From the NCBI GenBank assembly GCA_007121785.1, contig SKJX01000083.1, forward strand, positions 169-24,168: a stretch of DNA of 24,000 nucleotides. Direction: 5' to 3'. Both the position numbers and the translations under genes were made by a program. Below, piece after piece: positions 1,675 through 24,000 of this stretch. Within the stretch, counting starts at the first letter, position 1, and each line of letters opens with the position of its first letter. Source of the stretch: Nitriliruptoraceae bacterium. Lineage in GTDB: Bacteria; Actinomycetota; Nitriliruptoria; Nitriliruptorales; Nitriliruptoraceae. Below the pieces are notes generated by a model. The model worked only from the letters and a program-made list of their open reading frames with translations, ran no database searches and was not told the DNA's origin.

Positions 1675-1810
1675 GGAGGTCGGCCTCCCCTTCGGGTGGT
1701 CTGCGGTCGGCTTCGGCTGAGCTGCGGTCGGCGCCGTCGGTCGCGGTGCGGGTGTCGGGCGGTGACGGCGATGCGCTGTCGGGGCGTGCACCCATCCTCA
1801 ACGGACGGAT

Positions 1811-1824
1811 AAGTACGGACATTT
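1811..1824. promoter_or_regulatory. AT-rich patch AAGTACGGACATTT in the SulP / MBL-rhodanese intergenic region; candidate operator or -10 region
   Basis: This is the only AT-rich stretch in the 165-nt gap 1675-1839. Its core GTACGGACAT matches 9 of 10 positions of the palindrome core GTACGTACAT at 4232-4241. Confidence 0.3.
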
Positions 1825-1839
1825 CCGGGGAGTGCCGGG

Positions 1840-3603: not shown

Positions 3604-3631
3604 CACCGGCTCCGATCGGTCGGCGCCGACG

Positions 3632-4180
3632 TCAGTTCGTTGACGAGGAGGTGGTCTTCGGACGGTTGTAGGGCAGCTTCGCCAGGAGCATGCCCATCGC
3701 GCAGGTGTTGGTGACCGCGGCGAACACCAGTCCGGCGCCGACGAACCCGGCGACGAACCGCGCCGGCGGGAAGACGATGCTCACCAGGATCGACAGCAGC
3801 ACGATCGAGCCGGCGACCAGCCGGACCTGTCGCTCCAGGTCCCACCGGATCACGTCCTGGACGATCGGGCCGTCGACCTGCTGCCACGCGAGCACCCCGC
3901 CCTCGAGGATCGGCAGCTCACCCAGCCCGGCCTCGGAGAGCTTCTCCTGCGCCTGGTGCGCGCGGTTGCCGGTGCGGCAGACCAGCACCACCTCGCGCCC
4001 CTCCTCGGTGAGCTCGCGGATCTTGTCGACGTGGTCGTCGAGCTCGTCCAGCGGCAGGTTCCTGGAACTGGGCAGGTGGATCGACTCGAACTCGCCGGGG
4101 GTTCGGACGTCGATCACCGCCGCCTCGTCCAAGCGGTGCTTGAGCACGTCGGGGTCGATACACACGGTCGCCTGCGTCAC
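3632..4180 (-). CDS. Rhodanese-domain sulfurtransferase with C-terminal DUF2892 membrane anchor (YgaP-like)
   Basis: GTG start at 4180 with an AGGAGG SD 6 nt upstream. The rhodanese fold has the active-site loop VCRTGNRA. The C-terminal two-TM segment ends in AAVTNTCAMGMLLAKLP, which is typical of DUF2892. Confidence 0.85.
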   Translation of the reverse strand: MTQATVCIDPDVLKHRLDEAAVIDVRTPGEFESIHLPSSRNLPLDELDDHVDKIRELTEEGREVVLVCRTGNRAHQAQEKLSEAGLGELPILEGGVLAWQQVDGPIVQDVIRWDLERQVRLVAGSIVLLSILVSIVFPPARFVAGFVGAGLVFAAVTNTCAMGMLLAKLPYNRPKTTSSSTN

Positions 4181-4229
4181 GGGTTCCTCCTGGGGTGGGA
4201 GCGGAAGGGTCCGCCCTCGTCAACGCGCA

Positions 4230-4241
4230 ATGTACGTACAT
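4230..4241. promoter_or_regulatory. Perfect 12-bp palindrome ATGTACGTACAT in an AT-rich patch of the divergent promoter region; candidate operator
   Basis: Read directly from the sequence. It sits between the divergent starts at 4180 (-) and 4438 (+), is flanked by TATTT, and overlaps -10-like hexamers on both strands. Confidence 0.4.
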
Positions 4242-4437
4242 ATTTCGACGTTGGCGATCCGACACTACGGCGTGCGACCCTCGCGCACGGTCGGGACACC
4301 GCCCTCACGCGACCTTCACCGCTCCCGGGCACTCGAGTGCCGGCCGGAGGGAATCCGCGGGACCGCCGGTCGGTTGCCAACGCGAGCGACCCGACCCACC
4401 AGCGCCGGACGACCCGGCAACGCCCCCGGAGATCACC

Positions 4438-5850
4438 ATGTTCACCACCTACGACGTCATCGTCATCGGCGCCGGCCCGGCCGGAGAGAACGCCGCCGAC
4501 TACGCCCGCCAACGCGGCCTGACCGCGGCCATCATCGAAGCCGAACTGGTCGGCGGCGAGTGCAGCTACTGGGGCTGCATGCCCTCCAAGGCGCTCCTGC
4601 GACCCACCGAGGCGCTCGCCGCCGCCCGCCGCGTCCCGGCCGCCGCTGCCGCGATCACCGGCGAGGTCGACGTCGAGAAGGTGCTGCGCAACCGCGACGC
4701 GTTCACCTCCAACTGGGAGGACAAGGGCCAGGTCGACTGGCTCGAGGGCGCCGGGGTCGAGCTGCACCGTGGCCACGGGCGCCTGGTCGGCGAGAAGGTC
4801 GTCGAGGTGATCGCGGAGGACGGCAGCGTGACCCGACTGGAGGCGAGCGAAGGCGTGGTGATCGGGGTCGGGACCCGCGCCGCGCACCCGCCGGTCGCCG
4901 GCCTGAGCGACATCATCACCTGGGACAACCGCGACATCACCGAGGCCAAGGAGATCCCGGACCGCCTGCTCGTCCTCGGCGGTGGCGTGATCGGTACCGA
5001 GATGGCTCAGGCCTTCGCGCGGCTCGGAGCCGACGAGGTCACCGTCATCGAGGCGCTCGATCGCGTGCTCGGCGTCGAGGAGCCCTTTGTCAGCGACGAG
5101 ATCGTCGCGGCGCTCGAAGCCGAGGGCATCGCTTTCCACCTCGGCGCCCGGGCCGAGCAGGTCCGGCGTGAGGGCACCGACGGTCCGGTCACCGTCACCC
5201 TCGCAAGCGGCGATGAGGTCACCGGCGATGAGTTGCTGGTCGCGGTCGGTCGGCGCGCACCGACGGACCAGCTCGGCCTCGACACGATCGGCGTCGAACC
5301 CGGGCGTGGCGGGTTCATCGAGGTGGACGACCACCTGCGCGTTCCCGGCCACGACTGGCTCTACGTCGTCGGTGACGCCAACGGCCGTGCGCTGCTCACC
5401 CACCAGGGCAAGTACCAGGCCCGCCTGGTCGGTGACGCGCTCGCCGGGGTCGACGTCGACCCGGCCTGGGCCGACGAACGCGCCGTACCGAGGGTCGTCT
5501 ACACCGACCCGCAGGTCGCCGCGGTCGGTCTGACCGAGGCCCAGGCACGCGAGGCCGGTCACGACGTCACCACCGCCTCCTACAACGTCGGGCACTCCGC
5601 GGGCGGTGCGCTGCTCGGCAAGGGCACCGACGGCACCGCGAAGCTCGTGATCGACCGCCCCCGTCGCACGATCCTCGGGGCGACCTTCGTCGGACCTGGC
5701 GTGGGTGAGATGCTGCACGCCGCGACGATCGCCGTGGTCAGCGAGGTCACCCTCGAACAGCTCTGGCACGCCGTGCCGCCGTTCCCAACGGTCTCGGAGG
5801 TGTGGCTACGGCTGCTCGAGCAGGTGCGGGCCCAGGAGCTCGGTGCCTGA
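4438..5850 (+). CDS. Class-I pyridine-nucleotide-disulfide oxidoreductase (dihydrolipoyl dehydrogenase / mercuric-reductase-like family)
   Basis: ORF 4195..5850. The real start is ATG 4438 (MFTTYDVIVIGAGPAGENAA, the FAD-binding GxGxxG motif) with a GGAG upstream. The redox-active disulfide motif is GGECSYWGCMPSK, the second Rossmann motif is LVLGGGVIGTEMAQ, and the C-terminal dimerisation motif is HAVPPFPTVSE. Confidence 0.85.
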   Translation: MFTTYDVIVIGAGPAGENAADYARQRGLTAAIIEAELVGGECSYWGCMPSKALLRPTEALAAARRVPAAAAAITGEVDVEKVLRNRDAFTSNWEDKGQVDWLEGAGVELHRGHGRLVGEKVVEVIAEDGSVTRLEASEGVVIGVGTRAAHPPVAGLSDIITWDNRDITEAKEIPDRLLVLGGGVIGTEMAQAFARLGADEVTVIEALDRVLGVEEPFVSDEIVAALEAEGIAFHLGARAEQVRREGTDGPVTVTLASGDEVTGDELLVAVGRRAPTDQLGLDTIGVEPGRGGFIEVDDHLRVPGHDWLYVVGDANGRALLTHQGKYQARLVGDALAGVDVDPAWADERAVPRVVYTDPQVAAVGLTEAQAREAGHDVTTASYNVGHSAGGALLGKGTDGTAKLVIDRPRRTILGATFVGPGVGEMLHAATIAVVSEVTLEQLWHAVPPFPTVSEVWLRLLEQVRAQELGA

Positions 5851-5934
5851 CCGGACGCCGATCGCACGCACCCTGCTTGCCCCTCCGCCTCTCCGGCCGA
5901 CAGGAGCAGGGGACGATCAGGGAGCACGACGCAC

Positions 5935-8022
5935 GTGAGGGGACGGTTCGGCGGTGACGGACCGCGATCGGTGGTGCGCACGTTCGCGTGGCGTTCCGCG
6001 ATCGTGTTCGCCATCGTCGCGGTCGGCCTCCACGTGCTCGTCAGCTCCGCGGTGACCGGGCACGTCCGTCAGGCGGCGACCTTCCACGCCGAGTTCGTCG
6101 CCCACTCGGTGCTCGACCCGCTCCTGGCGGAGCGAAGCCAGCCCGATGAGCCCGTGCATGAAGCAGCCGGGGACCCGGCGTTCCGGGCGGCGATCGAGGC
6201 CTACGCGATCGACGAGCACGTCGTCCGCATCCTCATCTGGGGCATGGACGGGACCGTGATCGCGTCGGACGACCCGTCGGTGCTGGGAGCGTCACCGCCC
6301 GGCTACCTCGACGGCGTCGGTGTGCAGGACGGGGCGCTCCACGCCGACGACGGCTCGCTCGACGCACCGGCCACGCCGGGCGGCCGCGCCGTCGACGACC
6401 CCGTCCGCAGCTTCATCCCGCTGGAGACCGGGGACGACCTGGTCGCGGAGATCCTGCAGGACCCGGCGATGTCGATTGGCGCCGCGAGTTCCTTCTCGCG
6501 GCTGCTGGATCTGACCGTCGTCGGTGGCCTCGCGCTCCTCTGGGCCCTGCTGCTGCCGGTCGCTCGCCGCGCCAGCCGTCGGCTCGACCGCCAGGCGCGA
6601 ACCGACGATCTGACCGGGTTGCTCAACCGTGGTGCCGTCCGCTCCCGGTTGAAGGACGCGGTCGACCACGCCGGTCGCGCCGGGGCCTACGTCGCGGTCC
6701 TGTTCATCGACCTCGACGGCTTCAAGGCGATCAACGAGGCGGGCGGCCATCAGGCCGGCGATCACGTCCTGCGGCAGGTCGCTGCCCGGCTCCGCGGTCA
6801 GGTGCGCTCCGTCGACGCGGTCGGCCGCTTCGCCGGTGACGAGTTCGTGGTGATCATCGACGGGGTCAACGACGAGGTCGCGGCGGAGCAGGTCGCCGCG
6901 CGGACGCTCGAGACCCTGCGTGAGCCCATCGACGGGGTCGGACCGCACCGGCTGACGGCGAGCATCGGCATGAGCGTCGGGTCGACGCGCAGCTCCGCCG
7001 ACGAACTGCTCCGCGATGCCGACGCGGCCATGTACGAGGCCAAATCCGACGGTGGCGATCACTACCGCGTGTTCGACGACGAACTGCGGTGCCTGGTGGC
7101 ACGTCGTCAGTGGATCGAGCGTGAGGTGCTCAGCGCGGTCGACGATGACCAGTTGCACCTGGTGTTCCAGCCGTTCGTGGCGCTCCAGGGTGAGCGTGCC
7201 GGCACGGTCGTCGCGGTCGAGGCACTGCTGCGTTGGACCCACCCCGAGGAGGGCCCCATCGGGCCCGGGGAGTTCATCCCCATCGCCGAGACGAGCGGTG
7301 CGCTCCATCGGCTCGGCCCGTGGATCATCGACGCGGCCTGTCACCAGCTGGCCACCTGGCAGACCGAGCTTCCCGCCCACGCCGAGCCGCGCATCTTCGT
7401 CAACCTCTCACCGGTCGAGCTGCGCAACGGTCTCCTCGACCAACTCGACGACGTGCTGGAGCGCACCGGAGCCGACGCGCGAGGCCTCGGGTTCGAGATC
7501 ACCGAGACCGCCATCCTCAGCGAGGACGACACGTCCGTCGTCGACACCCTGGCGGCGCTCCGTGACCGCGGCTGCGTCATCGCGGTGGACGACTTCGGGA
7601 CCGGCTACTCGTCGCTCAGCCGGCTGCGGACGATGCCGATCGACCTGCTCAAGCTCGACGCGTCGTTCGTGGGCAGCCTCACGTCCAGCCGGCGCGAGCT
7701 GGCGATCTCCACGGCCGTGGCGGGGCTCGCGCAACGGCTCGGCGTCACGGTCCTCGCGGAGGGCATCGAGACCACCGATCAGCTCGTCGCCGTCCGCGAA
7801 CTCGGCTTCGACCTCGCGCAGGGCTACCACCTGGCTCGACCGGCACCTCCGGAGGAGATCGTCGCCTACCTGTCGACCGCGGCGCTGCCCGCCGGGCCGC
7901 CGGCGCCGATCGGCGACCGTCATCTCGATCCTGACGGCGGGGTCACCCCGTCGTGGGCGTTACGGCCACGAGGCGAAGGTCGTGGGTCAGCAGACGCTGT
8001 CGGTGGGCTTGGGGTTGGGTAG
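5935..8022 (+). CDS. Membrane-anchored GGDEF-EAL protein (c-di-GMP synthase/phosphodiesterase) with a periplasmic sensor region between two TM helices
   Basis: GTG start at 5935. The GGDEF domain has an RSVD I-site followed by the AGDEF A-site variant. EAL-domain motifs are VEALLRW, DDFGTGYSSL, LKLD, EGIET and QGYHLARP. Confidence 0.85.
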   Translation: MRGRFGGDGPRSVVRTFAWRSAIVFAIVAVGLHVLVSSAVTGHVRQAATFHAEFVAHSVLDPLLAERSQPDEPVHEAAGDPAFRAAIEAYAIDEHVVRILIWGMDGTVIASDDPSVLGASPPGYLDGVGVQDGALHADDGSLDAPATPGGRAVDDPVRSFIPLETGDDLVAEILQDPAMSIGAASSFSRLLDLTVVGGLALLWALLLPVARRASRRLDRQARTDDLTGLLNRGAVRSRLKDAVDHAGRAGAYVAVLFIDLDGFKAINEAGGHQAGDHVLRQVAARLRGQVRSVDAVGRFAGDEFVVIIDGVNDEVAAEQVAARTLETLREPIDGVGPHRLTASIGMSVGSTRSSADELLRDADAAMYEAKSDGGDHYRVFDDELRCLVARRQWIEREVLSAVDDDQLHLVFQPFVALQGERAGTVVAVEALLRWTHPEEGPIGPGEFIPIAETSGALHRLGPWIIDAACHQLATWQTELPAHAEPRIFVNLSPVELRNGLLDQLDDVLERTGADARGLGFEITETAILSEDDTSVVDTLAALRDRGCVIAVDDFGTGYSSLSRLRTMPIDLLKLDASFVGSLTSSRRELAISTAVAGLAQRLGVTVLAEGIETTDQLVAVRELGFDLAQGYHLARPAPPEEIVAYLSTAALPAGPPAPIGDRHLDPDGGVTPSWALRPRGEGRGSADAVGGLGVG

Positions 8023-9231
8023 ACCGAACAGCGACCGCAACCGTAAGCCCACCCAGGTCCCGGCCAGCGCCATCACCCCCCAGATCCACCCGTGCAGGCT
8101 CAGCGAGGCGATCCCCGACAGGTACGCGCCGATGTTGCAGCCGAAGGCGATGCTCGCCCCGTAGCCCATCGCGATCCCACCCACGGTGTGGGAGGCCGCG
8201 ACGTTGCGTGGCACCTTGCGCCGGAAGGTGAAGGACCCGGCGACCGCGGCCGCCACCAACGCACCGAGGATGATCCCGATGTTGGTCACGCTGGTGTTGT
8301 CGAGCAGGATCGAGGACTCCAGGGCAGGGTTGTTCTGCCAGGCTGGCCAGCTCGCCGGATCCCCCAGCCCGAGGGCGCCCACGAGCTTGGAGCCCCAGAG
8401 CCGGAACGCACCGGTGACCCCCCAAGGCGACCCCGAGGTCAGCAGCACGAGCGCGTTGAGGCCGGCCAGCACCAGGGCGCCGACCCACAACGGCCACGAC
8501 CCGCGCAGGATGCGGGCGGCACCGCGCGTGGTCGGCACCGGATCGATGGGCGGCGGCTGGCGACGACGACGGACGACCTCCGCGACCGTCGCGATCACGG
8601 CCAGCAACGTCAGCGAGACCACGACACCACCGGCGTGACCGAACCGCGTGTCCGCCAACGACACGGGATCGCTGATGACCACGCCGGCCACCCCACCGGG
8701 CTCCCACCACTGCACCGTTCGGATACCCGCGATCGACCCGACGATGAAGGCGGCGAGGGTGATCAGCACCGGGCCGTGACCGGAGCCGGTGGCGTACAAC
8801 GTCCCGGAGGCGCAGGCGCCCCCGAGCTGCATGCCGATCCCGAACAGCACCGACCCGACGAACAACCCCAGCGTGATCGGCGCGACGAACCCGGACGCAT
8901 CACCGAAGAACCCCGCACCTCCAGCCAGGATCGGTGCGAACAGCACCACCGCCGTGCCGAGCATCAGCGTGTGCGCCTGTAACCCACGACCCTGACCGAC
9001 GCTGACCAGTTGCCGCCAGGCGGAGGTGAAACCGAACCTCGCGTGGAACAGGGTGACGCCCAGCGCCACCCCGAGCACGAGCAGCAGCGCACGGTCCAGC
9101 CCGTAGCGCTGGAAGGCGTACCAGGCCAGGGCGAGGGCACCCAGGCTGCCCGTGGCGGCCAGCCCGAGCTGTGGGGCCGGCAGGGACGGCGCCGTCCTCG
9201 GTGGGTCCTGGACGAGCGGGGTGGTGGCCAT
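7987..9231 (-). CDS. YeeE/YedE-family sulfur-compound (thiosulfate-type) transporter, two-repeat form
   Basis: ORF 7987..9264. The likely start is ATG 9231 (MATTPLV) with a GGAGA SD. It is a polytopic membrane protein with the conserved Cys motifs GGACASGTLY and FGCNIGAY characteristic of YeeE/YedE. Confidence 0.85.
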   Translation of the reverse strand: MATTPLVQDPPRTAPSLPAPQLGLAATGSLGALALAWYAFQRYGLDRALLLVLGVALGVTLFHARFGFTSAWRQLVSVGQGRGLQAHTLMLGTAVVLFAPILAGGAGFFGDASGFVAPITLGLFVGSVLFGIGMQLGGACASGTLYATGSGHGPVLITLAAFIVGSIAGIRTVQWWEPGGVAGVVISDPVSLADTRFGHAGGVVVSLTLLAVIATVAEVVRRRRQPPPIDPVPTTRGAARILRGSWPLWVGALVLAGLNALVLLTSGSPWGVTGAFRLWGSKLVGALGLGDPASWPAWQNNPALESSILLDNTSVTNIGIILGALVAAAVAGSFTFRRKVPRNVAASHTVGGIAMGYGASIAFGCNIGAYLSGIASLSLHGWIWGVMALAGTWVGLRLRSLFGLPNPKPTDSVC

Positions 9232-9355
9232 GAAGGGATCTCCGGGTCGATCACGTGTGCACACGCCACGGTGTGGGCGCGGTCGGCGAGGTGGTCGCTC
9301 GAGCGACGGCGGCCACGCTACGGAGCGGACCGGTGACCCAGCCAGCCCGACCGTG

Positions 9356-15154: not shown

Positions 15155-16477
15155 TCATCGGTCGGGCCCGGCCGGGGGCGACGTCGAGGGGCGCGGTGGG
15201 GCCTCGACGCCGGTGGGCCACAACCCGGCCAGTAGGGCCGACGCTAGAGCAGCACCGACGGCCACGCCGCCGATGGCGAACAGCGGGAGCCCGTCGACCA
15301 CCCGGGCAGCCCCGACGGCGGCCGTCAGGACCCCCAGGTTGAGCAGGACGGCGCGGCTGCGGGCCCCGACCTCCAGCCGCTCACGGAGCACGTCACGGGC
15401 CTCGGTGCTGTGCCCACGCAGCATCGGTGCGAGGTAGATCAACGTGGCCGTGATGGCCTGGGCCAGGACCCCGGCCAGCGCCACCGTGCCCAGCAGGTCG
15501 AGCCACCGCCAGGTGCCGGTCGCGACCACGGCGACGTCGCCCCACGCGAACACCGGGAACCAGAGGCACACCCCCAGCACCAGCGGCCGGGCCGCCGTCA
15601 CCCGGGCGCGGTAGACGGCTCGGAAGACCGGCAGGCACACCAACGTGGCCGCGGTGGCGTACACCGCCAGCCCGGCACCGGCGACGACCTGCGCCGCGAG
15701 CCCCCACGGTCCGTCCAGCGCCGTGAGCAGCAGCACCAGGACCGCGACGCTCAAGCCCGTCGCCCCGTGGCGCAGCCAGCGGGCCGCACGAGCGTCCGCA
15801 CCCGGCTCGATCTGGCAGCGCGCCATCGTCGGCCCGAAGAACACCAGGGTCGCCAGCAGGGTCAGCCCACCCCACCCGAGCACGTTGGCGTGCAGGTGCG
15901 CCAGCCGGGTCGAGGCGTACCACGTGCCGCTGACCAGCCCGACCCCCAGCAGCGCCCCGAAGACCGCGCCGTGGATGAACGCGCCGTGGGCGCGTTCGTA
16001 GATCCGCGCGATCCACGCGAAGCGGGCACCGATGGCGGAGCGGCGCATGTGGCGCAGCCGGCGGTACGCCACGAACACCGACACGGTGACGGTCGTGGCC
16101 CCGATCGCCAGCGCCGGCAGCCAACCGGTCGGCAGCCCGATCAGCGTCACCGCGATGCCGACGTTGGTGACGACCGGCCAGACGGCCGACCGCTCCCCGG
16201 GGGTGCGGGTGACGGTCCGGCCGAAGTGCTCGCTGAAGGTCAGCACCAGGTTGGTGAGCACCCCGAGCGTGAACAGGTGCACCGCGAACCACCGGCCACC
16301 GGGCAGGTGGTCACCGAGGATGAGCCAGACGACCAGCAGCGCCGCGTAGCCGAGCGCCAGGGCGATGCTGGGAGCGGCGGGACCGAACGGCGAACGTCCG
16401 CGAGGGCGTTGGCCGTGGCCGGGCCGCAGGGACGGCAGCGAGGACGCGTTCGGGTTCATCCCGGCACCAGCGTTCAT
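15155..16477 (-). CDS. Polytopic His-containing membrane protein, NnrS-like (paralog 2)
   Basis: ORF 15155..16933. The start is assigned to ATG 16477, which overlaps the upstream stop (ATGA at 16474-16477). WFAVHLFTLG resembles the NnrS WHAHEMLFGF motif, and HANVLGWGGLTLLATL resembles the NnrS HALTVGAIGLMTLAMM motif. The family call is by eye only. Confidence 0.45.
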   Translation of the reverse strand: MNAGAGMNPNASSLPSLRPGHGQRPRGRSPFGPAAPSIALALGYAALLVVWLILGDHLPGGRWFAVHLFTLGVLTNLVLTFSEHFGRTVTRTPGERSAVWPVVTNVGIAVTLIGLPTGWLPALAIGATTVTVSVFVAYRRLRHMRRSAIGARFAWIARIYERAHGAFIHGAVFGALLGVGLVSGTWYASTRLAHLHANVLGWGGLTLLATLVFFGPTMARCQIEPGADARAARWLRHGATGLSVAVLVLLLTALDGPWGLAAQVVAGAGLAVYATAATLVCLPVFRAVYRARVTAARPLVLGVCLWFPVFAWGDVAVVATGTWRWLDLLGTVALAGVLAQAITATLIYLAPMLRGHSTEARDVLRERLEVGARSRAVLLNLGVLTAAVGAARVVDGLPLFAIGGVAVGAALASALLAGLWPTGVEAPPRPSTSPPAGPDR

Positions 16478-17607
16478 GCCGGCACCGGTGCGGTCGAGGC
16501 CGTGCGGCGTCCGCGACGCACCGACCGGACGGTCAGGACCAGGAACACCGTCAGGGCGAGGACGTTGCCGTGCAGCGCGACCTCGCGCCAGCCTTCCGAG
16601 CCGAGCAGGTCCGCGCCGATCCGCACCGCGACGGAGACGTGGAGCAGCGTGAGCGGCAGGTAGGCACGTCGGTGGAACTCCAGCGGGGTCCGGAGCACGG
16701 CCGGGACGATGATCGGAGCATGGCCCATCACCATCGACAGCACGAACCCGACGAACAGCGAGTGCACCAGCGCGTCGTGCAGCAGGTGACCGGAGGCACC
16801 CAGGGCCATCGCGACCCACAACACCCCGCTGACGGCCATCCAGACGTACGCCGTCAGCAGGCAGATGGCGATGAACCGGGTCAGCCCCGTGCGGTGGACG
16901 GTCCGGCGCGCCAGGTCGTAGCGGACCAACCACGCGACCTGGCCCAGCAGCCCCAGCCCGCCCAGCAGCAGCCCGGTCGAGCGCCAGAACGCCGCCATGG
17001 CCACCCCCAGCGCGAAGACGCCCACCGCGACCAGGAACCGACGACGGCTCCGTGCGGAGGGCAGGGTCAATCGGCTCAGCTCCAGCCGTTCACCGACGAT
17101 CGTCAGCACCAGGAACGCCGCCAGCAGCGGCGTGATCCGGATCGGGCCCAGCCCCGCCAGCCACAGCACGGCCGCCCCGACCCAGGCGAGAGCACCGAGC
17201 CCCATGATCGCCAGGTGCACCTCGCGCCCACCTCGACGCAGCAGCTCCAGATAGGTCGCGGTGACCACCAGACCGCCGAGCAGCAACAGCACGCCGCCGA
17301 CCGGTCGCAGCAGCGGCAACGTCAGCGTCGCCGCCCCGGTCAGCGCGGGGCCGAGGTAGCCCCACCGGGTGCCGAGCGCGACCGCCCGCTCCAGCGCGAT
17401 GACGGTGCCGAGGAACCCGAGCACCATGATCACGCCGTGCAGATCCGGTGCGACGAACCGGTGCTCGATCCCGGCGCGGCCCAGCCCGGTGTACACCCCG
17501 AGGACCAACCCGATCCCTCCGAGCAGCAGCAGCGCCAACCGATGCTGCGGCAACCGAGGAGCGGTGCCAGCGATGGGTGTGGACGGCGGGGACGTCGAGG
17601 TGGTCAC
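16474..17607 (-). CDS. Polytopic His-containing membrane protein, NnrS-like (paralog 1)
   Basis: ORF 16474..17805. The start is assigned to GTG 17607, which overlaps the regulator stop (GTGA at 17604-17607) and has an AGGAG SD 6 nt upstream. Motifs LHGVIMVLGFLGTVIA, IVGERLELS, AYVW and HSLFVGFVLSMVMGH parallel the NnrS motifs WHAHEMLFGFxxAVIA, IGGRIIPAF, LHxxYxW and HALTVGAIGLMTLAM. Confidence 0.5.
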   Translation of the reverse strand: MTTSTSPPSTPIAGTAPRLPQHRLALLLLGGIGLVLGVYTGLGRAGIEHRFVAPDLHGVIMVLGFLGTVIALERAVALGTRWGYLGPALTGAATLTLPLLRPVGGVLLLLGGLVVTATYLELLRRGGREVHLAIMGLGALAWVGAAVLWLAGLGPIRITPLLAAFLVLTIVGERLELSRLTLPSARSRRRFLVAVGVFALGVAMAAFWRSTGLLLGGLGLLGQVAWLVRYDLARRTVHRTGLTRFIAICLLTAYVWMAVSGVLWVAMALGASGHLLHDALVHSLFVGFVLSMVMGHAPIIVPAVLRTPLEFHRRAYLPLTLLHVSVAVRIGADLLGSEGWREVALHGNVLALTVFLVLTVRSVRRGRRTASTAPVPA

Positions 17608-18407
17608 GTGGCGCTCCTGAGTCGGGCGACGCAGCCGCCGAACCGCTCGGTCGAGCCGTTCGCGTGCTCGGACGGGGCGTCCCCCGGGTCGAGGGCGAGC
17701 AGCTCCACCTCGTCGCCCATCGCGTCGAGGGCGCCGCGGGTGATGCCGCGGTGCACCGCACACGCGATCTCCGGGTGGATCGCGGCGACGTCGTGGAACG
17801 GGCACCGCGGGAAGGTCAGGTGCAGCTCGGCGTCGGCCAGCTCGGCGACGTCCGGCTCGAAGCCCCAGGACGCGAGCACGGCCAGCAGCCGTTCGATCGC
17901 GTCGCTCGCATCGAGGTGGCGCTCGCGTCCGTCGTCGAGCACCGCGCGGCGGCCCCAGGTTGCGGCGGCATCCTCCGCGATCCGGGCGGGATCCGCGTGG
18001 TCGTGCTGGACCTGACCGGCCAACAGGACGGCCAACCGTCGGTAGACGTCGTCGTCCTGCTCGGCATGGTCGGCGTGATCGGCGTGGTCGGCGTGATCGG
18101 CGTGGTCGGCGTGGTCGCCGCCTGAGCCGACGTCATCGGTGGCGGTGCCTTCACCGAGGTCCGCCTCCGACGCGAGCCGGTACAGCGACCGCGGCCGACC
18201 CGGGCCGTCGGGGGCATCCGTCTCGTGCGCGACCAGCCCGGCGATCTCCAGGACACCGAGGTGGGTGCGTACGGTGTTGCGGTGAAGGTCGAGCCGGTCC
18301 GCGAGGTCACCGATCGCCAGCGGCGAACCAGCGGCGCGCAGCAACTCGAGCAGCTGCGCACGGACCGGACTGGCCAGCGCCCGGTGGACCGTCACCTCGC
18401 TCGTCAC
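17604..18407 (-). CDS. ArsR/HTH_20-type winged-helix transcriptional regulator with an internal (DHA)6 repeat and a C-terminal Cys/His-containing domain
   Basis: GTG start at 18407. The N-terminal wHTH reads ALASPVRAQLLELLRAAGSPLAIGDLADRLDLHRNTVRTHLGVLEIAGLV. The linker is GGDHADHADHADHADHADHAEQDDD. The C-terminal domain has the pattern FPRCPFHD...EIACAVHRG. Confidence 0.75.
   Translation of the reverse strand: MTSEVTVHRALASPVRAQLLELLRAAGSPLAIGDLADRLDLHRNTVRTHLGVLEIAGLVAHETDAPDGPGRPRSLYRLASEADLGEGTATDDVGSGGDHADHADHADHADHADHAEQDDDVYRRLAVLLAGQVQHDHADPARIAEDAAATWGRRAVLDDGRERHLDASDAIERLLAVLASWGFEPDVAELADAELHLTFPRCPFHDVAAIHPEIACAVHRGITRGALDAMGDEVELLALDPGDAPSEHANGSTERFGGCVARLRSAT
18063..18116 (-). 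repeat. In-frame 9-bp tandem repeat x6 (GGCGTGRTC on the plus strand) encoding (Asp-His-Ala)6 inside the regulator gene
   Basis: Read directly: ggcatggtc ggcgtgatc ggcgtggtc ggcgtgatc ggcgtggtc ggcgtggtc. Confidence 0.95.
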
Positions 18408-18423
18408 GCCGTCACCTCGCTCG
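18389..18423. repeat. 15-bp direct repeat CCGTCACCTCGCTCG x2 (20-bp period) spanning the regulator start codon
   Basis: The copies lie at 18389-18403 and 18409-18423. On the coding strand each copy contains GAGGTGACGG, that is, an SD-like GAGG followed by GTG. Confidence 0.9.
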
Positions 18424-18430
18424 ACACGGT

Positions 18431-18551
18431 GGGGACCTCGGTGGGATCCAGCGGGATCCAGCGGGGACCGTCGGTCGGGATCGTCGGTCGGGATCCAGCG
18501 GGGACCGTCGGTCGGGACCGTCGGTCGGGATCGTCGGCGGGCCAGCCGAAC
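18431..18551. repeat. Non-coding tandem array of about 11 short units (10-14 bp) of two types, GGGATCCAGC and GGG(G)AYCGTCGGTC
   Basis: Read directly. The units start at 18431, 18443, 18453, 18463, 18477, 18490, 18500, 18514, 18527, 18539 and 18552. The 37-bp block 18453-18489 recurs at 18490-18538 with one extra 13-bp unit. Confidence 0.9.
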
Positions 18552-18568
18552 GGGCAGCCCACCCGCCA

Positions 18569-18584
18569 GAGGTCAGCTGACCTC
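18569..18584. promoter_or_regulatory. Perfect 16-bp palindrome GAGGTCAGCTGACCTC overlapping the cupredoxin stop codon; candidate operator or short hairpin
   Basis: Read directly. It lies immediately upstream (on the minus strand) of the repeat array and the regulator gene. Confidence 0.3.
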
Positions 18585-18947
18585 CAGGGTCCCTTCCATC
18601 CCGGCGTCCCGGTGGCCCGGGATGCTGCAGTAGACGGTGTAGGTCCCGGCGTCCAGGTCGATCGTGCCGGTGTTGGTCTCACCGGGGTCGGCGTGCACGA
18701 CCAGGTCATCGCCCTCCTCCTCGACCACGAAGTCGTGTTCGACCCCGCCGACGTTCTCCAGGGCCACGGTGACCTCGCCGGCGTCCGCAGCGAACGACTC
18801 GGGCTCGAAGTACATGTCGCCGGCTTCGATCTGCAGCGAGCCGTCGGTCGCGGGCTCCGCGGCGTCGCCGCCGTTGCCGCATCCGGCCAGCACGACGGCG
18901 GCGGTGGCAGCCATGGCCACCAGGCGGGTCGTCCGTGTCCTGTTCAT
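18573..18947 (-). CDS. Type-1 (blue) copper protein, plastocyanin/azurin-like cupredoxin lipoprotein
   Basis: The start is ATG 18947, or GTG 18950 as an alternative, with a GAGAGGA SD. The signal peptide has the lipobox VLAGC. The copper ligands are His in GGVEHDF and the C-x4-H-x4-M motif YCSIPGHRDAGM. Confidence 0.85.
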   Translation of the reverse strand: MNRTRTTRLVAMAATAAVVLAGCGNGGDAAEPATDGSLQIEAGDMYFEPESFAADAGEVTVALENVGGVEHDFVVEEEGDDLVVHADPGETNTGTIDLDAGTYTVYCSIPGHRDAGMEGTLEVS

Positions 18948-19011
18948 CACAACGTCCTCTCTGTCGGGTCCGCAGCGACCGATGTCGCCGTCGTTGGAGT
19001 GACCGGCTCGG

Positions 19012-19029
19012 GTACTAAACGTTTTGTAC
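19012..19029. promoter_or_regulatory. Imperfect 18-bp palindrome GTACTAAACGTTTTGTAC (8 of 9 arm pairs) inside the most AT-rich patch of the window; candidate operator or promoter of the cupredoxin gene
   Basis: Read directly. It lies 65-82 nt upstream of the cupredoxin start, with TTGCAT and TAGTGT/TAGTAC hexamers nearby on the minus strand. Confidence 0.35.
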
Positions 19030-19080
19030 TACACTAATGATTACGATGCAAGCCCGGAGCCCACACCGCACGCCCCGGGA

Positions 19081-20322
19081 TCATCCCTGCGGCGCGTGCT
19101 CCTGCCCGGCCAGCCAACGGTCGACGACGATGAAGCGCCAGACCGTGTGCACCAGGCCGGCGAGAGCGACGGTGGAGAGCAGCATCAGCCCGATGGCGAA
19201 GGAACCGGTCACCTGGAATACGCCGCCCATGACCAGGGGTGGGAGGAACCCGCCGAGTCCTCCGGCCGCACCGACGAACCCGGTGACCGCACCGACCGAC
19301 GTCTCGGGGGCCCGACGACCGACCAGCGCGAACACCGCACCGTTGCCGATGCCCAGGGCGGCCGCGACGGACAGGAACGTCGCGGTGGAGGCCACCAGCG
19401 GGAACTCGAAGGCGATCACGATCGCCCCGGCACCGATGACGGCCAGCGCGGCCGCCAGCACCCGTGGGGCGTCGATCCGGTCGGCCAGGATCCCACCGAC
19501 CGGGCGAGCGATCGTGGCCAGGACGAGGAAGCCGCCGGTGCGCGCCGCCGCATCCGCCGCCGTCAGGTCGTAGATCTGCTGGAGGTAGCTGGGCAGGTAG
19601 ACCCCGAAGGCGACGAAGCCACCGAAGGTGATGGCGTACAGGGCGGCGAGGTCGTACGTCACCCGCAGGGCCAGCGCCTTGCGCAGCCGGGCGACCATGG
19701 GCAACGTCTGCGGTTCCCAGTTCGGCGCATCCCGCCCGAAGATCCAGGCGAGGGCGGCGGTCGAGGCGAGCACCGCCCCCACGATGAGGAACACCCCCGG
19801 CCGCGAGGTGGCGCTCTGCAGCGGCTGGGTCGTGAACGCCGCGACCGCGGTCCCGGCGCCGCCCATCCCGTAGATGCCCAGCGCGGTCCCACGTCGTTCG
19901 GGTGGGAACCATGCGTTGACGAACGGCACCCCGACGGCGAACGACGCGCCGGAGAACCCCAGCAGCAGCGCTCCCAGGAGCAGGGTGGGGTAGGCCTCGA
20001 AGGCCGCCAGCCAGACCAACGGGATGACCACCGCCAGGCTGAGCCCGGTCAGCACCACCCGGCCGCCGTAGCGGTCGGTCACCGCTCCGAGGGGGATCCG
20101 TGCGAGCGACCCCAGGATGACCGGGACCGCGACGAGCAGCGACACCTGGACCGGCTGGAGCGCGAGCGCCTCGCGGTAGTCCGGCGCGAGCGGCGAGAGC
20201 AGCCCCCAGGCCCAGAACGTCGTCAGGTACGTCAACGTCGCCACCAGGAGCGCCCGCCACGCCCCGGAGCGAACCGGTGCGGCGGCCGTCACGGTGACCT
20301 CGCTCCCACCCTTGGCCTGCAT
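19081..20322 (-). CDS. MFS transporter of the NarK / nitrate-nitrite porter (NNP) type
   Basis: ORF 19081..20382. The start is uncertain: ATG 20322 has no clear SD, and GTG 20292 has a GAGG 5-6 nt upstream. The motifs FVNAWFPPERRGTALGIYGMGGAGTAV and GIGNGAVFALV...GAVTGFVGAAGGLGGFLPP parallel the two NarK nitrate-signature regions. Confidence 0.65.
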   Translation of the reverse strand: MQAKGGSEVTVTAAAPVRSGAWRALLVATLTYLTTFWAWGLLSPLAPDYREALALQPVQVSLLVAVPVILGSLARIPLGAVTDRYGGRVVLTGLSLAVVIPLVWLAAFEAYPTLLLGALLLGFSGASFAVGVPFVNAWFPPERRGTALGIYGMGGAGTAVAAFTTQPLQSATSRPGVFLIVGAVLASTAALAWIFGRDAPNWEPQTLPMVARLRKALALRVTYDLAALYAITFGGFVAFGVYLPSYLQQIYDLTAADAAARTGGFLVLATIARPVGGILADRIDAPRVLAAALAVIGAGAIVIAFEFPLVASTATFLSVAAALGIGNGAVFALVGRRAPETSVGAVTGFVGAAGGLGGFLPPLVMGGVFQVTGSFAIGLMLLSTVALAGLVHTVWRFIVVDRWLAGQEHAPQG

Positions 20323-20353
20323 CGTGCGATCCGAGCGCGCCACCGCGCGCACG

Positions 20354-21484
20354 TCAAGGAGCCGCAACGACCTCCGGTGCATCGACCGCGGACCCGTGCC
20401 GCGCCCCTCGCCGGAACGACCGACGGACCACCAGCGCCACCGGGACGGCCTGCAGCAGTCCCAGCGCGACGGTCAGGCGCACCAGCCCATCGGGCCACAC
20501 GGTCGGGAACCCGCTGGCGAACAGCATCGGCAGGTGCACGATGCCCTGGTGGTAGAGCACGGAGGCCGAGGCGATCCCGAGGGCCAGCACCCGACCCGAG
20601 GCCACCCGCAGCGCCCAGATGGCGCCACCGATCCCACCGATCAGGAAGATCGAGGTGTGCAGCAGCCCGGTCAGTTCGTCCAACGGCTCCGACGGCCAGG
20701 CGGCCAGGTCGTCGACGAGGTGGATCGTGTTGATCGCGGCGACCGCACCGACCGTCCACGCCGCCGGACGGATCAGCCCCGGCAGGTCCGGACGTCGCAG
20801 CCCGAGCACCGCCGGCAGGGCCAGCACGGCCGCCAAGGCGAGCCACGGCGTCGCGCTCGGCGGGTCCTCCCACACGAGCTGTCCGCGGACCTCCACGATC
20901 CGGCCGTCGTGGTGGAGGGGGAGCGTCCAGTCGGTGAACGGCCCTTCGTCCTCACCGGCCGAGCCGATCACCCCGACCAGCCGCATGTCCATCAACGACC
21001 GGGCCAGCGGTCCGGCGTCGACGAACCTCGGCGGCTGCGGGGCCATCCAGTGCGTCCGGTGGTCGTGCCAGACCCAGCGGGGCTCGTCGTCGACGTGCAC
21101 CCAGTCCGGCGGCGCGTCCGGGTCGACGGTCGGTGGCAGGGCGACGTCACCGAACCGTTCGCTGTTGAGGTAGGTGGCAGCCGAGTGGCGGTTGCGCTGG
21201 ACCCCGTCGGGTCCGATCCGCAGGTACGGCTCGCGGTCGTAGCCCTCGACGATCACCGGCTGGTCGCCCTCGTTGACGAGTTCGACGGCGAGCCCGCCGG
21301 TGTGGACGGTGAGCTGGACACCGGGCAGTTCGGGGCCTTCGACCACCTCGCTGACGATGTTGGTGGTCTCCTCCGTCCGCGTGTGCGCGTCGGCGCCGGC
21401 CGTCCATCCCAGCAGCACCGCGGCACCGGCCGCGGACACGACGGACAGCCGGACGGGCCACCGCAGCGTGCCGGTCACCACCAT
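20354..21484 (-). CDS. Unknown protein with a signal peptide, a His-rich extracytoplasmic domain and about five C-terminal TM helices
   Basis: ORF 20354..21982. The start is assigned to ATG 21484, which overlaps the ctaB stop by 10 nt. The predicted signal peptide ends in GADA followed by HTRTEE. The periplasmic part contains WVHVDDEPRWVWHDHRTHWM. I recognise no family. Confidence 0.55.
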   Translation of the reverse strand: MVVTGTLRWPVRLSVVSAAGAAVLLGWTAGADAHTRTEETTNIVSEVVEGPELPGVQLTVHTGGLAVELVNEGDQPVIVEGYDREPYLRIGPDGVQRNRHSAATYLNSERFGDVALPPTVDPDAPPDWVHVDDEPRWVWHDHRTHWMAPQPPRFVDAGPLARSLMDMRLVGVIGSAGEDEGPFTDWTLPLHHDGRIVEVRGQLVWEDPPSATPWLALAAVLALPAVLGLRRPDLPGLIRPAAWTVGAVAAINTIHLVDDLAAWPSEPLDELTGLLHTSIFLIGGIGGAIWALRVASGRVLALGIASASVLYHQGIVHLPMLFASGFPTVWPDGLVRLTVALGLLQAVPVALVVRRSFRRGARHGSAVDAPEVVAAP

Positions 21485-22425
21485 GCGGTCGTGCCGATCA
21501 GCACGAACAGCAGGGCGAGGTACAGGTTGGAGGTGTGGAAGCTCTTCCAGGCGGTGGATGGTGTCGGCGAGCTGAGCAGCCGGGCCGCCCGGAGCACCAG
21601 CAGCGCTCCCAGAGCCGAAGCGAGCGCGAGGTAGCCGACCCCGCCGACGCCGACCAGGGGCAGCAGCAGGGAGCTGCTGGCGGTGGCGATCGCGTAGCCG
21701 AGCGCATGGCGGGCGGCGACCTTCGGCCCTCGGACGGTGGGCAGCATGGGGATGCCGGCACGGCCGTAGTCCTGTCCGGTGCCGACGGCCAGCGACCAGA
21801 AGTGGATCGGGGTCCAGAGCACGACGACGGTGGTGAGCACGACCGCCGCCAGCGGGACCTGGCCGGTGACCGCCGCCCACCCGATCATCGGTGGCAGCGC
21901 ACCCGCCACCCCGCCGATGACGATGTTCTGCGAGCTGCGACGCTTCAACCACAGGGTGTAGATCCCGACGTACCACAGCCACGCGGTGAGGGTCAGCAGG
22001 GCCGCGACCGGCCCGGCCGCCGTCAGCATCGTGACCGAACCCACGATCAGCAGCACGGTCGCGAAGACCAGCGCCGCTCGCGGGCGGATGCGCCCGGTCG
22101 GTAGCGGGCGATCCTCGGTCCGGTGCATCGCCCCGTCGATGTCACGGTCGATGACCATGTTGGTCGCGTGGGCGGAGCTCGACACCAGTGCACCGCCGAC
22201 CACGGTGCCGAGTACCAGCCAGGCACCCGGCCACCCACCCGCCGCGACGATCATCGCCGGCACGGTGGTGATCAGCAGCAGTTCGACGATGCGGGGTTTG
22301 GTCAGCGCCAGGTAGTCACGGACCGTCCGCCGCACGTCGGACACCGACGATGCGCGGGCGACCGTGGGTGCCCGCGCCACCCCCGGGGTGGTCGAGCCGA
22401 CGTGGGTGTTGAGCGGCGTCGCCAC
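21475..22425 (-). CDS. ctaB: Protohaem IX farnesyltransferase (haem O synthase)
   Basis: GTG start at 22425, 3 nt after the oxidase stop. UbiA-fold motifs are YLALTKPRIVELLLITT, NMVIDRDIDGAMHRTEDRPLP and YTLWLKR. Confidence 0.9.
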   Translation of the reverse strand: MATPLNTHVGSTTPGVARAPTVARASSVSDVRRTVRDYLALTKPRIVELLLITTVPAMIVAAGGWPGAWLVLGTVVGGALVSSSAHATNMVIDRDIDGAMHRTEDRPLPTGRIRPRAALVFATVLLIVGSVTMLTAAGPVAALLTLTAWLWYVGIYTLWLKRRSSQNIVIGGVAGALPPMIGWAAVTGQVPLAAVVLTTVVVLWTPIHFWSLAVGTGQDYGRAGIPMLPTVRGPKVAARHALGYAIATASSSLLLPLVGVGGVGYLALASALGALLVLRAARLLSSPTPSTAWKSFHTSNLYLALLFVLIGTTAWW

Positions 22426-22428
22426 GGG

Positions 22429-24000
22429 TCACCCCACCGGCCAGGCTTGGGACAGGTTGAAGTGCGCAGCGAGGTAGAGCAGCACGAACCACCCGAGGAA
22501 CACCAGCACGAGGAAGTAGGTGCCCGGCGCCTCGAAGGTCGCCCACCGGCCGCGCAACTGCAGCATGCGCTGGACCATGCCGAGCTTCTCCGGCTCTTCA
22601 CCGTGCATGTCGGGCCGCTCGGCGGTCGCGGTGACCGTGCCGGCCGGCTGCCCAACAGGTTCGGTCACCGCTCCGGGACGCTCACGGGGGCTCAGCGGTG
22701 AGCCAGCGCGGAAGGCGAACCCGAGCCCCGCATCCGGCTGCTCGCTGCGTTCGCCCTTCAGCAGGGTCATCGCGATGATCCAGATGAACTGGATCCCACC
22801 GATCACGGCGACGACCGCACCCAGCGACACCAGGACCATCACCAGCGGCACGGCCCCGGCCTCGAACAGGGGCATGGCCACCTGCGCACCCTCGTAGTCG
22901 AGGTCGGAGACCCGCCGTGGGACGCCGAGCTGCCCGGCGAGCATCATCCCGAGCGTCAGCACCGCGACGCCCCCGGCGAACACGTAGGGCTGGATCCGTG
23001 CCATGCGCATGTTGGTCAGGTTGCGCTGGGCGAGCAAGGGGATCAGGTAGTAGGAGATGCCCATGAACGCCAGGGTCGTGCCCGAGACGACCGTGGCGTG
23101 GAAGTGGCCGACCGTGAAGAGCGTGTTGTGGATCACCATGTTGAGCTGCATGGTCCCCATGAGCACACCGCTGGTCCCGGCGATGAAGCCGAAGTACACC
23201 ACCGAAAGCACCAGCGAGGACACCCCCGGTTCACGCCAGGGCAGCTTCCTCAGCCACGTCAGCAGCCCCCTGCGGTGCCCGGCTTCGCGCTGGGAGATCT
23301 CCATCGACGCCGGGATCGAGAACGCGTGGATCAGGCTCGCCAGGACGGCGAGGTAGAGCATGTAGCTGGTGTTCATGATCCGGTGGCTGGTCCCCAGCCC
23401 CGGGTCGACCAGCAGGTGGTGGACCGCACCCAGGTGGATGAAGGCGATGTAGAGCAGGAACGCGACGCGGCTGAGCCCCTCGTTGACCGGACGGCCGCCG
23501 AGCGTGAAGCCGATCAGCGCGTACCAGACCGCCACCATGATGGCCAGGTTGACCTGCTGCGCACCGTGGCCGATGCCCCAGAAGAACAGGCGGTAGGTCG
23601 CCGGGTCGACCAGTTCCATCAGGCCGATCGACTGCAGGAACAGCATCCCGTAGGCCACCGCGCCGGTCCCCAACGCGTAGACGGCGATGACCGCGCCGGC
23701 CATCAGCCCGTAGACGACCAGCGGGAGCGACCCTTCGTAGCTGCCTTCGCGCTTCGCGCCGATGACGTTGGCGACGAAGATCCCGCAGGCCAGCAGCATC
23801 CCGACCGCGAACAGCAGCACCCCGGCGTAGTACAGCGGGTGCGCCGTCAACGGCGGGTACGCGGTGAACATCACCGTCGCCTCGCCGGCGAGCATCATCC
23901 ACTGCGCCAGGGCGATCCCGACGATCATCATCACGAAGTTGGCCCAGGCCAGCTTCGGCACCCGCATGCGGGTGTTGAGCAGCATCGTCGAGCCCCAGTA
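22429..24000 (-). CDS. Haem-copper oxidoreductase catalytic subunit I, B-family (ba3)-like with a non-canonical active site; 5' end lies outside the window
   Basis: The frame stays open to position 24000 (..YWGSTMLLNTR). It is collinear with Thermus ba3 subunit I as I recall that sequence: EATVMFTAYPPL, GAVHHLLVDPG (two CuB His), VGHFHATV (haem ligands), GVPRR, and an extra C-terminal helix. Helix VI reads FWGIGHGAQQVN instead of GHPxVY. Confidence 0.85.
   Translation of the reverse strand, partial: YWGSTMLLNTRMRVPKLAWANFVMMIVGIALAQWMMLAGEATVMFTAYPPLTAHPLYYAGVLLFAVGMLLACGIFVANVIGAKREGSYEGSLPLVVYGLMAGAVIAVYALGTGAVAYGMLFLQSIGLMELVDPATYRLFFWGIGHGAQQVNLAIMVAVWYALIGFTLGGRPVNEGLSRVAFLLYIAFIHLGAVHHLLVDPGLGTSHRIMNTSYMLYLAVLASLIHAFSIPASMEISQREAGHRRGLLTWLRKLPWREPGVSSLVLSVVYFGFIAGTSGVLMGTMQLNMVIHNTLFTVGHFHATVVSGTTLAFMGISYYLIPLLAQRNLTNMRMARIQPYVFAGGVAVLTLGMMLAGQLGVPRRVSDLDYEGAQVAMPLFEAGAVPLVMVLVSLGAVVAVIGGIQFIWIIAMTLLKGERSEQPDAGLGFAFRAGSPLSPRERPGAVTEPVGQPAGTVTATAERPDMHGEEPEKLGMVQRMLQLRGRWATFEAPGTYFLVLVFLGWFVLLYLAAHFNLSQAWPVG

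Follow-up and report, generated by a model that had tools for sequence, protein, structure and literature searches.

Nitric oxide (NO) reductases produce nitrous oxide (N2O), a strong greenhouse gas, and several of their families can be told apart by the residue at one helix VI site, which is Tyr in oxygen reductases, Glu in cNOR and qNOR, Asn in sNOR, and Gln in eNOR (PMC8756737 Table A4, after Hemp and Gennis, 2008). The same table gives eNOR a single predicted proton channel. Among the other families, the active site of bNOR matches that of sNOR, gNOR carries an Asp for a metal-B His together with a subunit II that lacks the CuA ligands, and nNOR combines cNOR-type active-site residues with a low-spin haem ligated by His and Met (Murali et al., 2024, PMC11214002). 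The biochemically characterized eNOR, from Rhodothermus marinus DSM 4252, contains haem As and reduces NO at 25 °C with a kcat near 0.7 per second, and no reduction of O2 was seen with several electron donors (PMC11214002). Criteria for membership include a modified haem a (haem As) at both haem positions, and the family keeps a K channel like that of the ba3 oxidases, including S309; in some members the low-spin haem is ligated by His and Lys, and many of the operons include CtaA (PMC11214002). The family was reported in 547 genomes of an earlier, smaller GTDB release and is described as common in hypersaline settings (PMC11214002).

The locus considered here lies in a 24,000-nucleotide stretch (the window) from a Nitriliruptoraceae bacterium, covering positions 169 to 24,168 of contig SKJX01000083.1 (assembly GCA_007121785.1). 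The gene that runs into the end of the window (22429..24000, minus strand) is very probably the gene for subunit I of a nitric-oxide reductase of the eNOR family, an assignment that extends to both its family and its function. It is an ordinary further member of a family that has already been named and of which one member has been characterized biochemically. The family consists of haem-copper oxidoreductases that arose from oxygen reductases of the ba3-like B family. A keyword search of the literature found no publication describing eNOR in Nitriliruptoria.

Subunit I, its active site and its clade

The window holds the C-terminal part of the gene, 523 codons and the stop, in a frame that is uninterrupted on the minus strand from position 24000 to a TGA at 22429-22431. 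An internal ATG (22429-23985) serves as the start in the list of open reading frames (ORFs), but the frame stays open to the window edge. Judged from P0001, a 610-residue homologue that is 96% identical over all 523 window residues and that served as the full-length stand-in for the tree and the residue numbering, about 87 N-terminal residues lie beyond position 24000, including the first low-spin haem His. The gene is probably cut by the end of the source contig too, given that P0296, a 100%-identical record of a neighbouring window protein, belongs to a contig of no more than 24,170 nt. A relative's contig (L001) carries a copy of the gene with 96% protein and 93% DNA identity. Between these two copies the synonymous divergence (dS) is 0.25 and the nonsynonymous divergence (dN) 0.018, giving a dN/dS of 0.07 and therefore indicating strong purifying selection on subunit I.

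Pfam assigns the protein to COX1 (E 5e-50), and its closest solved structures, found with HMMER against the PDB, are the subunit I chains of Thermus thermophilus ba3 (E about 3e-47; 29% identity over 407 aligned residues). None of its 32 PDB matches at E<=0.001 is a cNOR or qNOR chain. The NCBIfam oxidase models score far under their cut-offs, CtaD for instance reaching 97 bits against 670. A first-pass annotation, made from the DNA letters without database searches, had already likened the protein to subunit I of the B family, as in ba3, and the COX1 match and the leading PDB relatives uphold that likeness.

The helix VI active-site motif, FWGIGHGAQQVNLA (23542..23583; minus strand, as for all subunit I motifs below), was compared with ba3 by HMMER and in two MAFFT alignments, each of which sets ba3 GH233PIVY237 against GHGAQQ. 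The metal-B His, H232 (23566-23568), equals ba3 H233, and a Gln pair, Q235 and Q236 (23554-23559), replaces ba3 V236 and Y237. The second Gln holds the position of the cross-link Tyr237, because no gaps separate the anchors W229/G232/H233 from Y248. An Asn (N238) stands at the position of ba3 W239; where O2 reductases of the ba3 type have GHPxVY(FW), the window protein reads GHGAQQVN. The helix VII pair H281 and H282 (23416..23421) corresponds by alignment to the metal-B ligands H282 and H283 of ba3. In the GHFH of helix X (23098..23109), the first His (H386) aligns with ba3 H384, a ligand of the high-spin haem, and the second (H388) with ba3 H386, a ligand of the low-spin haem. H70, the sixth ligand, falls outside the window and is found in P0001. 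The first-pass annotation had named the His of GHG, the HH and the GHFH as the metal ligands visible in the window, and had read a Gln in place of the cross-linked Tyr four residues after the metal-B His; the ligands are found where it placed them, and all three alignments agree on the Gln.

The Gln substitution recurs throughout the relatives of the protein. The pattern GHxxQQ[VIM]N is present in 120 of 120 close homologues among the matches listed, and in all 78 genome loci parsed for the motif from the best 80 of a scan for which one of two search patterns had QQ built in. That scan covered 185,579 species genomes and returned at least 567 relatives, in line with the 547 eNOR genomes reported earlier. 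In a diverse set of 92 sequences, aligned by MAFFT alongside 14 B-family references, Q235, Q236 and N238 are each invariant (92/92), while V, Y and W occupy these positions in 14 of 14 references.

A neighbour-joining tree of 79 sequences (401 well-aligned columns, capped distances, 100 bootstraps) gathers the 45 Gln-bearing sequences into a single clade (support 94/100), which branches with groups derived from the B family. The Tyr-bearing relatives, which came from a separate representative search free of the QQ bias, fall outside it, and the placement of the window protein within a clade of verified O2-reducing enzymes, which the first-pass annotation had named as an outcome that would count against its reading, was not seen. 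The Gln clade spans Nitriliruptoria, Bacillota/Thermaerobacter, Thermomicrobium, Chloroflexota, Gemmatimonadota, Acidobacteriota and Rhodothermales/Balneolaceae, as well as Alpha-, Beta-, Gamma- and Deltaproteobacteria, a Thermus thermophilus megaplasmid and the haloarchaeon Natrarchaeobius. Within it, P0001 is placed on a short branch in a tight Nitriliruptoria subclade, and the closest named relatives of the window protein are metagenome-assembled genomes (MAGs) of Nitriliruptoraceae and Egicoccus.

The sNOR/bNOR, gNOR, nNOR and cNOR/qNOR families are excluded because the protein combines the Gln with three metal-B His and His/His ligation of the low-spin haem. The Thermus plasmid member of the Gln clade reads GHFK in place of GHFH, the variant with a His/Lys-ligated low-spin haem that some eNORs are reported to have, and this counts in favour of the eNOR identity of the clade. 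The first-pass annotation had proposed a candidate NO reductase that derives from the B family and lacks the Tyr. This proposal is supported by the Gln characteristic of eNOR, by the clade, and by CtaB together with the CuA subunit II and CtaA of the L001 operon described below.

The likely proton path points the same way. Y247 (23521-23523) aligns with ba3 Y248, and in the 92-sequence alignment the SLIHAFS stretch of helix VIII (23317..23337) lines up with S309, T312 (here His) and T315 (here Ser) of the ba3 K channel. Conservation in the diverse set is nearly complete, with Y247 in 92/92, S309 in 91/92, H312 (for T312) in 92/92 and Ser or Thr at 315 in 88/92. These residues agree with the published description of the eNOR channel and count for the eNOR reading. 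At the start of the same helix, NTSYMLY (23353..23373; same alignment) contributes N297, Y300 and Y303, whose conservation in the Gln clade is 98-100% (Y300 in 92/92); canonical B-family oxidases lack them, and so do the relatives that keep the Tyr. Two further features, each specific to the family, lie beyond position 24000 and are seen in P0001. The N-terminal RTCxVTG (residues 11-17) has a Cys that occurs in 99% of the eNOR sequences, and the helix II Glu E83 is invariant, where B-family oxidases have a hydrophobic residue.

The operon and its accessory genes

For the part upstream of subunit I, the operon of L001 serves as the model; its order is an Rrf2 regulator, CtaA (haem a synthase), a 50-aa ORF, a 196-aa subunit II, subunit I and CtaB, followed by the same downstream gene order as in the window. 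The Rrf2-family regulator has a C-x6-C-x5-C motif. Subunit II aligns with the CuA domain of ba3 (HMMER, E 1e-17) and has all of the CuA ligands, H, C, C, H and M (DVQH..., ICNEYCGLGHHLM; H...CxExCGxxHxxM). By eye, a DERRWL stretch precedes its membrane helix; this presumably resembles the E15-K-G-W-L channel entrance of ba3, the HMMER alignment covering the CuA domain only. The succession of small ORF, subunit II and subunit I is that of the ba3 cbaDBA operon.

Gene content was counted over 86 eNOR-related loci, or 85 for the cytochrome b/Fe-S protein discussed below. All 86 carry a subunit II homologue, and the CuA motif was seen in 68 out of 75 loci where it could be tested. The small ORF is detectable in 47/86, CtaB adjoins the enzyme in 23/86 and an Rrf2 gene is found in 21/86; both L001 and L088 have CtaA upstream. 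The flanking of the operon by CtaA and CtaB matches the published descriptions of eNOR operons (PMC11214002).

Inside the window, the genes from 15155 to 22425 described here all lie on the minus strand, downstream of subunit I. The first is ctaB (21475..22425), a haem o synthase gene (NCBIfam NF003349, E 8e-101; Pfam UbiA, E 7e-62), whose start lies 3 nt past the subunit I stop, exactly as the first-pass annotation had it. The start of the next gene overlaps the ctaB stop. This gene (20354..21478) encodes a 374-aa protein that has no Pfam or NCBIfam match and that, by eye, consists of a hydrophobic N-terminus resembling a signal peptide, a domain of about 230 residues, and hydrophobic C-terminal stretches, with a His right after the putative cleavage site (GADA/HT). 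It occurs in 6/86 loci, all of them from Nitriliruptoria and always following ctaB, and may act in assembly or in the delivery of metal.

A transporter of the MFS type follows (19081..20322; 413 aa from the second Met; MFS_1, E 2e-37). It had been called NarK-type at first; its best family is indeed the NarK model TIGR00886 (E 6e-60), but the score of 203 bits against a cut-off of 311.7 makes it NarK-like only. The blue-copper lipoprotein recognized in the first-pass annotation stands as such: the gene (18573..18950) encodes a plastocyanin/azurin-type protein with a Copper-bind match (E 2e-11), a lipobox (LAGC) and the Cys, His and Met ligands (C..H....M). It is found in 6/86 loci, five of the Nitriliruptoria type and one from a Chloroflexota MAG (L012). 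Next comes an ArsR/HTH_20-type regulator (17604..18407; Pfam HTH_20, E 5e-11) with a HADHADHADHADHADHAEQDDD linker. As an observation in its own right, this linker, between the DNA-binding and C-terminal domains, consists of a five-fold HAD repeat and an acidic run (DHADHADHADHADHADHAEQDDD), and may be metal-binding.

The last two genes of this series encode polytopic membrane proteins, one of 377 aa from an uncharacterised family (16474..17607; no Pfam or NCBIfam match) and one of 440 aa (15155..16477; no family match). Both had been labelled NnrS-like in the first-pass annotation, a label that finds no support: neither has a Pfam NnrS match at E<=10 or any NCBIfam match, and BLASTP against an annotated NnrS gives E about 1 for each. 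For the 377-aa protein, hhalign assigns NnrS a probability of 0.3%, and not one of the 120 homologues listed has any Pfam domain. A YwiC-like identity of the 440-aa protein was likewise rejected (BLASTP, E about 5). The family of the 377-aa protein is large, with 3110 matches at E<=1e-3 and members at, for example, L085:6452-7744 and L086:6548-7657, and the protein recurs in six eNOR loci from different phyla. Its Burkholderiales homologues, on pHG1 of Cupriavidus necator and on a plasmid of Paraburkholderia, adjoin genes for Rrf2, hemerythrin-domain, DUF2249, NnrS and qNOR proteins. This gives the protein an indirect link to NO, and the family may represent a part of NO-stress regulons that has no name yet. 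The 440-aa protein was found in 3/86 loci, and no plasmid homologue of it was found.

These genes stand where other eNOR loci have a different partner. In 63 of 85 loci, a fusion protein of about 526 aa is encoded no more than 10 kb from eNOR (L004:11414-12994, with homologues in L010-L084). It has an N-terminal cytochrome b domain, according to the annotation of a Defluviimonas plasmid record, and Cys-rich C-terminal motifs that resemble Fe-S sites. The fusion is absent from the window and from L001, L002, L005-L008 and L087-L089; the loci that lack it include all those of Nitriliruptoria, the Clostridia locus and the Thermomicrobium locus, although their lengths of 15-22 kb are adequate. The three window proteins of no assigned family were ruled out as its homologues (E above 1). 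The absence of the fusion, with a cupredoxin and the 374-aa protein in its stead, suggests that the eNOR locus of Nitriliruptoria has a different electron-input or assembly arrangement, and this is the sole aspect of the locus with some novelty.

Two sets of genes were noted aside from these. On the T. thermophilus plasmid pTthSNM6-6b (L003, 2185-12196), the GHFK eNOR homologue lies beside a NirK-like multicopper protein that carries a fused cupredoxin, and its neighbours also include a DUF542 protein, a YwiC-like protein, cytochrome P460 and an Rrf2 regulator; the set looks like a compact N-oxide island. The rest of the window holds an ECF sigma factor, CcdA/thioredoxin-like genes, a beta-eliminating lyase and sulfur-related genes. 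The latter, at 274-9264, encode a metallo-beta-lactamase-fold/rhodanese protein, a SulP/STAS transporter, a pyridine-nucleotide disulfide oxidoreductase and a YeeE/YedE-type sulfur transporter; a GGDEF-EAL protein is encoded there too, and the region is unrelated to the eNOR finding.

Proposed mechanism and rival explanations

By analogy with the characterized enzyme, electrons would enter from a periplasmic carrier, most obviously the candidate blue-copper lipoprotein encoded nearby, and would pass from CuA to the low-spin haem and on to the centre formed by the high-spin haem and metal B. There, two molecules of NO would be reduced according to 2NO + 2e- + 2H+ -> N2O + H2O. The reaction takes two electrons and requires no tyrosyl radical, and Gln236 stands at the position of the Glu that ligates FeB in cNOR. 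The protons would probably be drawn from the cytoplasm along the K-channel-like path (Y247, S309, H312 and S315); with cytoplasmic proton uptake, turnover would therefore be electrogenic. The three-Cys Rrf2 regulator upstream in L001 suggests control by an Fe-S cluster sensor, possibly one responsive to NO.

Several points weigh against the assignment to eNOR. The link that places the window protein in one clade with the assayed R. marinus enzyme is drawn from the diagnostic residue, a Rhodothermales MAG protein within the clade, and the published descriptors. The activity and the haem type of the enzyme are predictions, its metal B may be Fe or Cu, and the subunit II, CtaA and Rrf2 of the window organism, whose genes would lie outside the window, are taken over from L001. 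The clade-specific and invariant Tyr300 and Tyr303, near the top of helix VIII, are known from sequence only. The sample from the genome scan is skewed toward Gln because one of its search patterns contained QQ, and the tree was built by neighbour-joining on 401 columns rather than by maximum likelihood. Finally, Pfam scans of the 24-kb window, which included no search directed at NirS, found no nir, nos or nar genes. The gene tables of relatives, including three long contigs and again with no NirS-directed search, list no nitrite reductase either, and tblastn across the loci with the NirK-like protein of Thermus gave only one match, in Latescibacterota. The role of the enzyme might thus be either denitrification or the scavenging of NO.

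Building on the eNOR assignment, one may conjecture that the haloalkaliphilic Nitriliruptoria have re-plumbed the eNOR core, a lineage-specific set of genes replacing the cytochrome b/Fe-S protein as a separate system of electron input and assembly for an energy-conserving NO scavenger in organisms that possibly lack nitrite reductase. This is rather doubtful at present. The set would comprise the blue-copper lipoprotein, the 374-aa protein (taken as secreted and membrane-bound, with translation coupled to that of ctaB), the NarK-like transporter and the two polytopic membrane proteins. In a more radical variant, the clade-specific pair Tyr300/Tyr303 may be a relocated redox-active element.

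Among the true rivals of NO reduction, the one that survives best, though it is quite improbable, keeps the eNOR fold and gives this lineage another chemistry, such as N2O reduction, NO dismutation or peroxide reduction, served by the accessory genes. Such a change would suit loci that have their own unassigned genes, no nir gene nearby and no cytochrome b/Fe-S partner of the kind found in 63 of the 85 loci, and other haem-copper offshoots without the Tyr have been proposed to carry out NO dismutation or N2O reduction (PMC11214002). Those proposed NO dismutase (NOD) and N2O-reductase families are, however, related to qNOR and cNOR rather than to the B family (PMC11214002). The window protein itself, on a short branch within the clade, has all of the clade-invariant active-site and channel residues unchanged.

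It is slightly less probable still that the enzyme remains an O2 reductase in which a Tyr from another helix, Y300, Y303 or Y271, takes the cross-link or radical role, as in cbb3. The appearance of N297, Y300 and Y303 coincides with the loss of Tyr237, both following the boundary of the Gln clade, and CtaA, which requires O2, is encoded in the operon. Y271 lies in LLYIAF (LLYIAFIHLGAVHH), the stretch that the first-pass annotation had singled out for a relocated Tyr; when it was checked, this residue aligned with ba3 F272, ten residues before the HH pair, and was found to be Leu in 5/92 sequences. The cross-link Tyr of the C family presumably sits six residues before that pair (P. stutzeri cbb3 Y251 against H257/H258), and the corresponding position in the Gln clade is Ile or Leu. 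Y300 probably confers no oxidase activity because it is present in 92/92 sequences of the clade, including one from Rhodothermales, a relative of the R. marinus enzyme with which no O2 reduction was seen. Structural models are moreover reported to show no migrated tyrosine in these families (Murali et al., PMC11214002).

That the gene is a decaying or non-functional oxidase remnant, as its incompleteness in the window and the missing catalytic Tyr of oxidases might hint, can practically be dismissed, since the truncation is the end of the window and not a mutation, the frame is open for 523 codons, the dN/dS against the 93%-identical copy is low, the ligands are intact, and the Gln substitution is invariant across phyla.

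Comparison with known systems

Identification of the gene as eNOR adds a Nitriliruptoria-like actinobacterium, from a soda-lake and saline group, to the organisms predicted to convert NO to N2O, possibly with conservation of energy. It leaves the knowledge of the eNOR family unchanged and confirms that the replacement of Tyr by Gln, taken together with clade and operon context, works as a diagnostic; the lineage-specific set of accessory genes is flagged as testable. Automatic annotation labels such genes cytochrome oxidase, and NCBIfam has no eNOR model, so that surveys based on names overlook the NO reductase of this family.

In helix order and ligand spacing the protein resembles T. thermophilus ba3 (PDB 1EHK/3S8F). 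The two differ in the replacements Y237 to Q, V236 to Q, W239 to N, Y244 to V and T312 to H, and in the extra invariant Glu of helix II, E83. Archaeal relatives with the motif GHxxQY (Hodarchaeales and Thermoproteota; P0122, P0124, P0126 and P0136) form the nearest branches outside eNOR, with 33-41% identity to P0001. They share Q235, N238, H312 and E83 with the window family but keep the cross-link Tyr and lack N297, Y300 and Y303. A K family of O2 reductases is stated to cluster with eNOR (bioRxiv 10.1101/592808), and the sister position of the archaeal relatives in the tree fits this pairing. They are probably this K family, a transitional or sister group of O2 reductases, and the next group out, in which a Tyr replaces a haem-ligand His, has features that fit the J family of the same preprint.

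The cNOR and qNOR enzymes share with the window enzyme the proposed reaction and the helix VI position (His+4) of the residue that defines the family. They differ in having Glu there, as an FeB ligand, in their kinship with cbb3, and in the entry of electrons through cytochrome c or quinol rather than CuA; they are also reported to have no conserved cytoplasmic proton channel (PMC11214002). With sNOR/bNOR, gNOR and nNOR, likewise derived from the B family, the likeness consists in the absence of the active-site Tyr and in second subunits of the cupredoxin fold, whereas the Asn of sNOR/bNOR, the metal-B Asp of gNOR, and the Glu-type site and His/Met haem of nNOR all have no equivalent in the window protein.

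The closest described system is the eNOR of R. marinus DSM 4252 (PMC11214002). The window protein falls into one clade with members from Rhodothermales, Anaerolineae, haloarchaea, Proteobacteria and the Thermus plasmid. It shares about 44% identity with its nearest Rhodothermales sequence and belongs to a Nitriliruptoria-like actinobacterial host, and its locus has, in place of the cytochrome b/Fe-S fusion, the blue-copper lipoprotein, the NarK-like transporter and three membrane proteins of no assigned family. What the two systems have in common is the Gln at the cross-link site, the three metal-B His, both sets of haem ligands a ba3-like K channel with S309, and CtaB in the operon; L001 suggests an upstream CuA subunit II and CtaA for the window organism as well.

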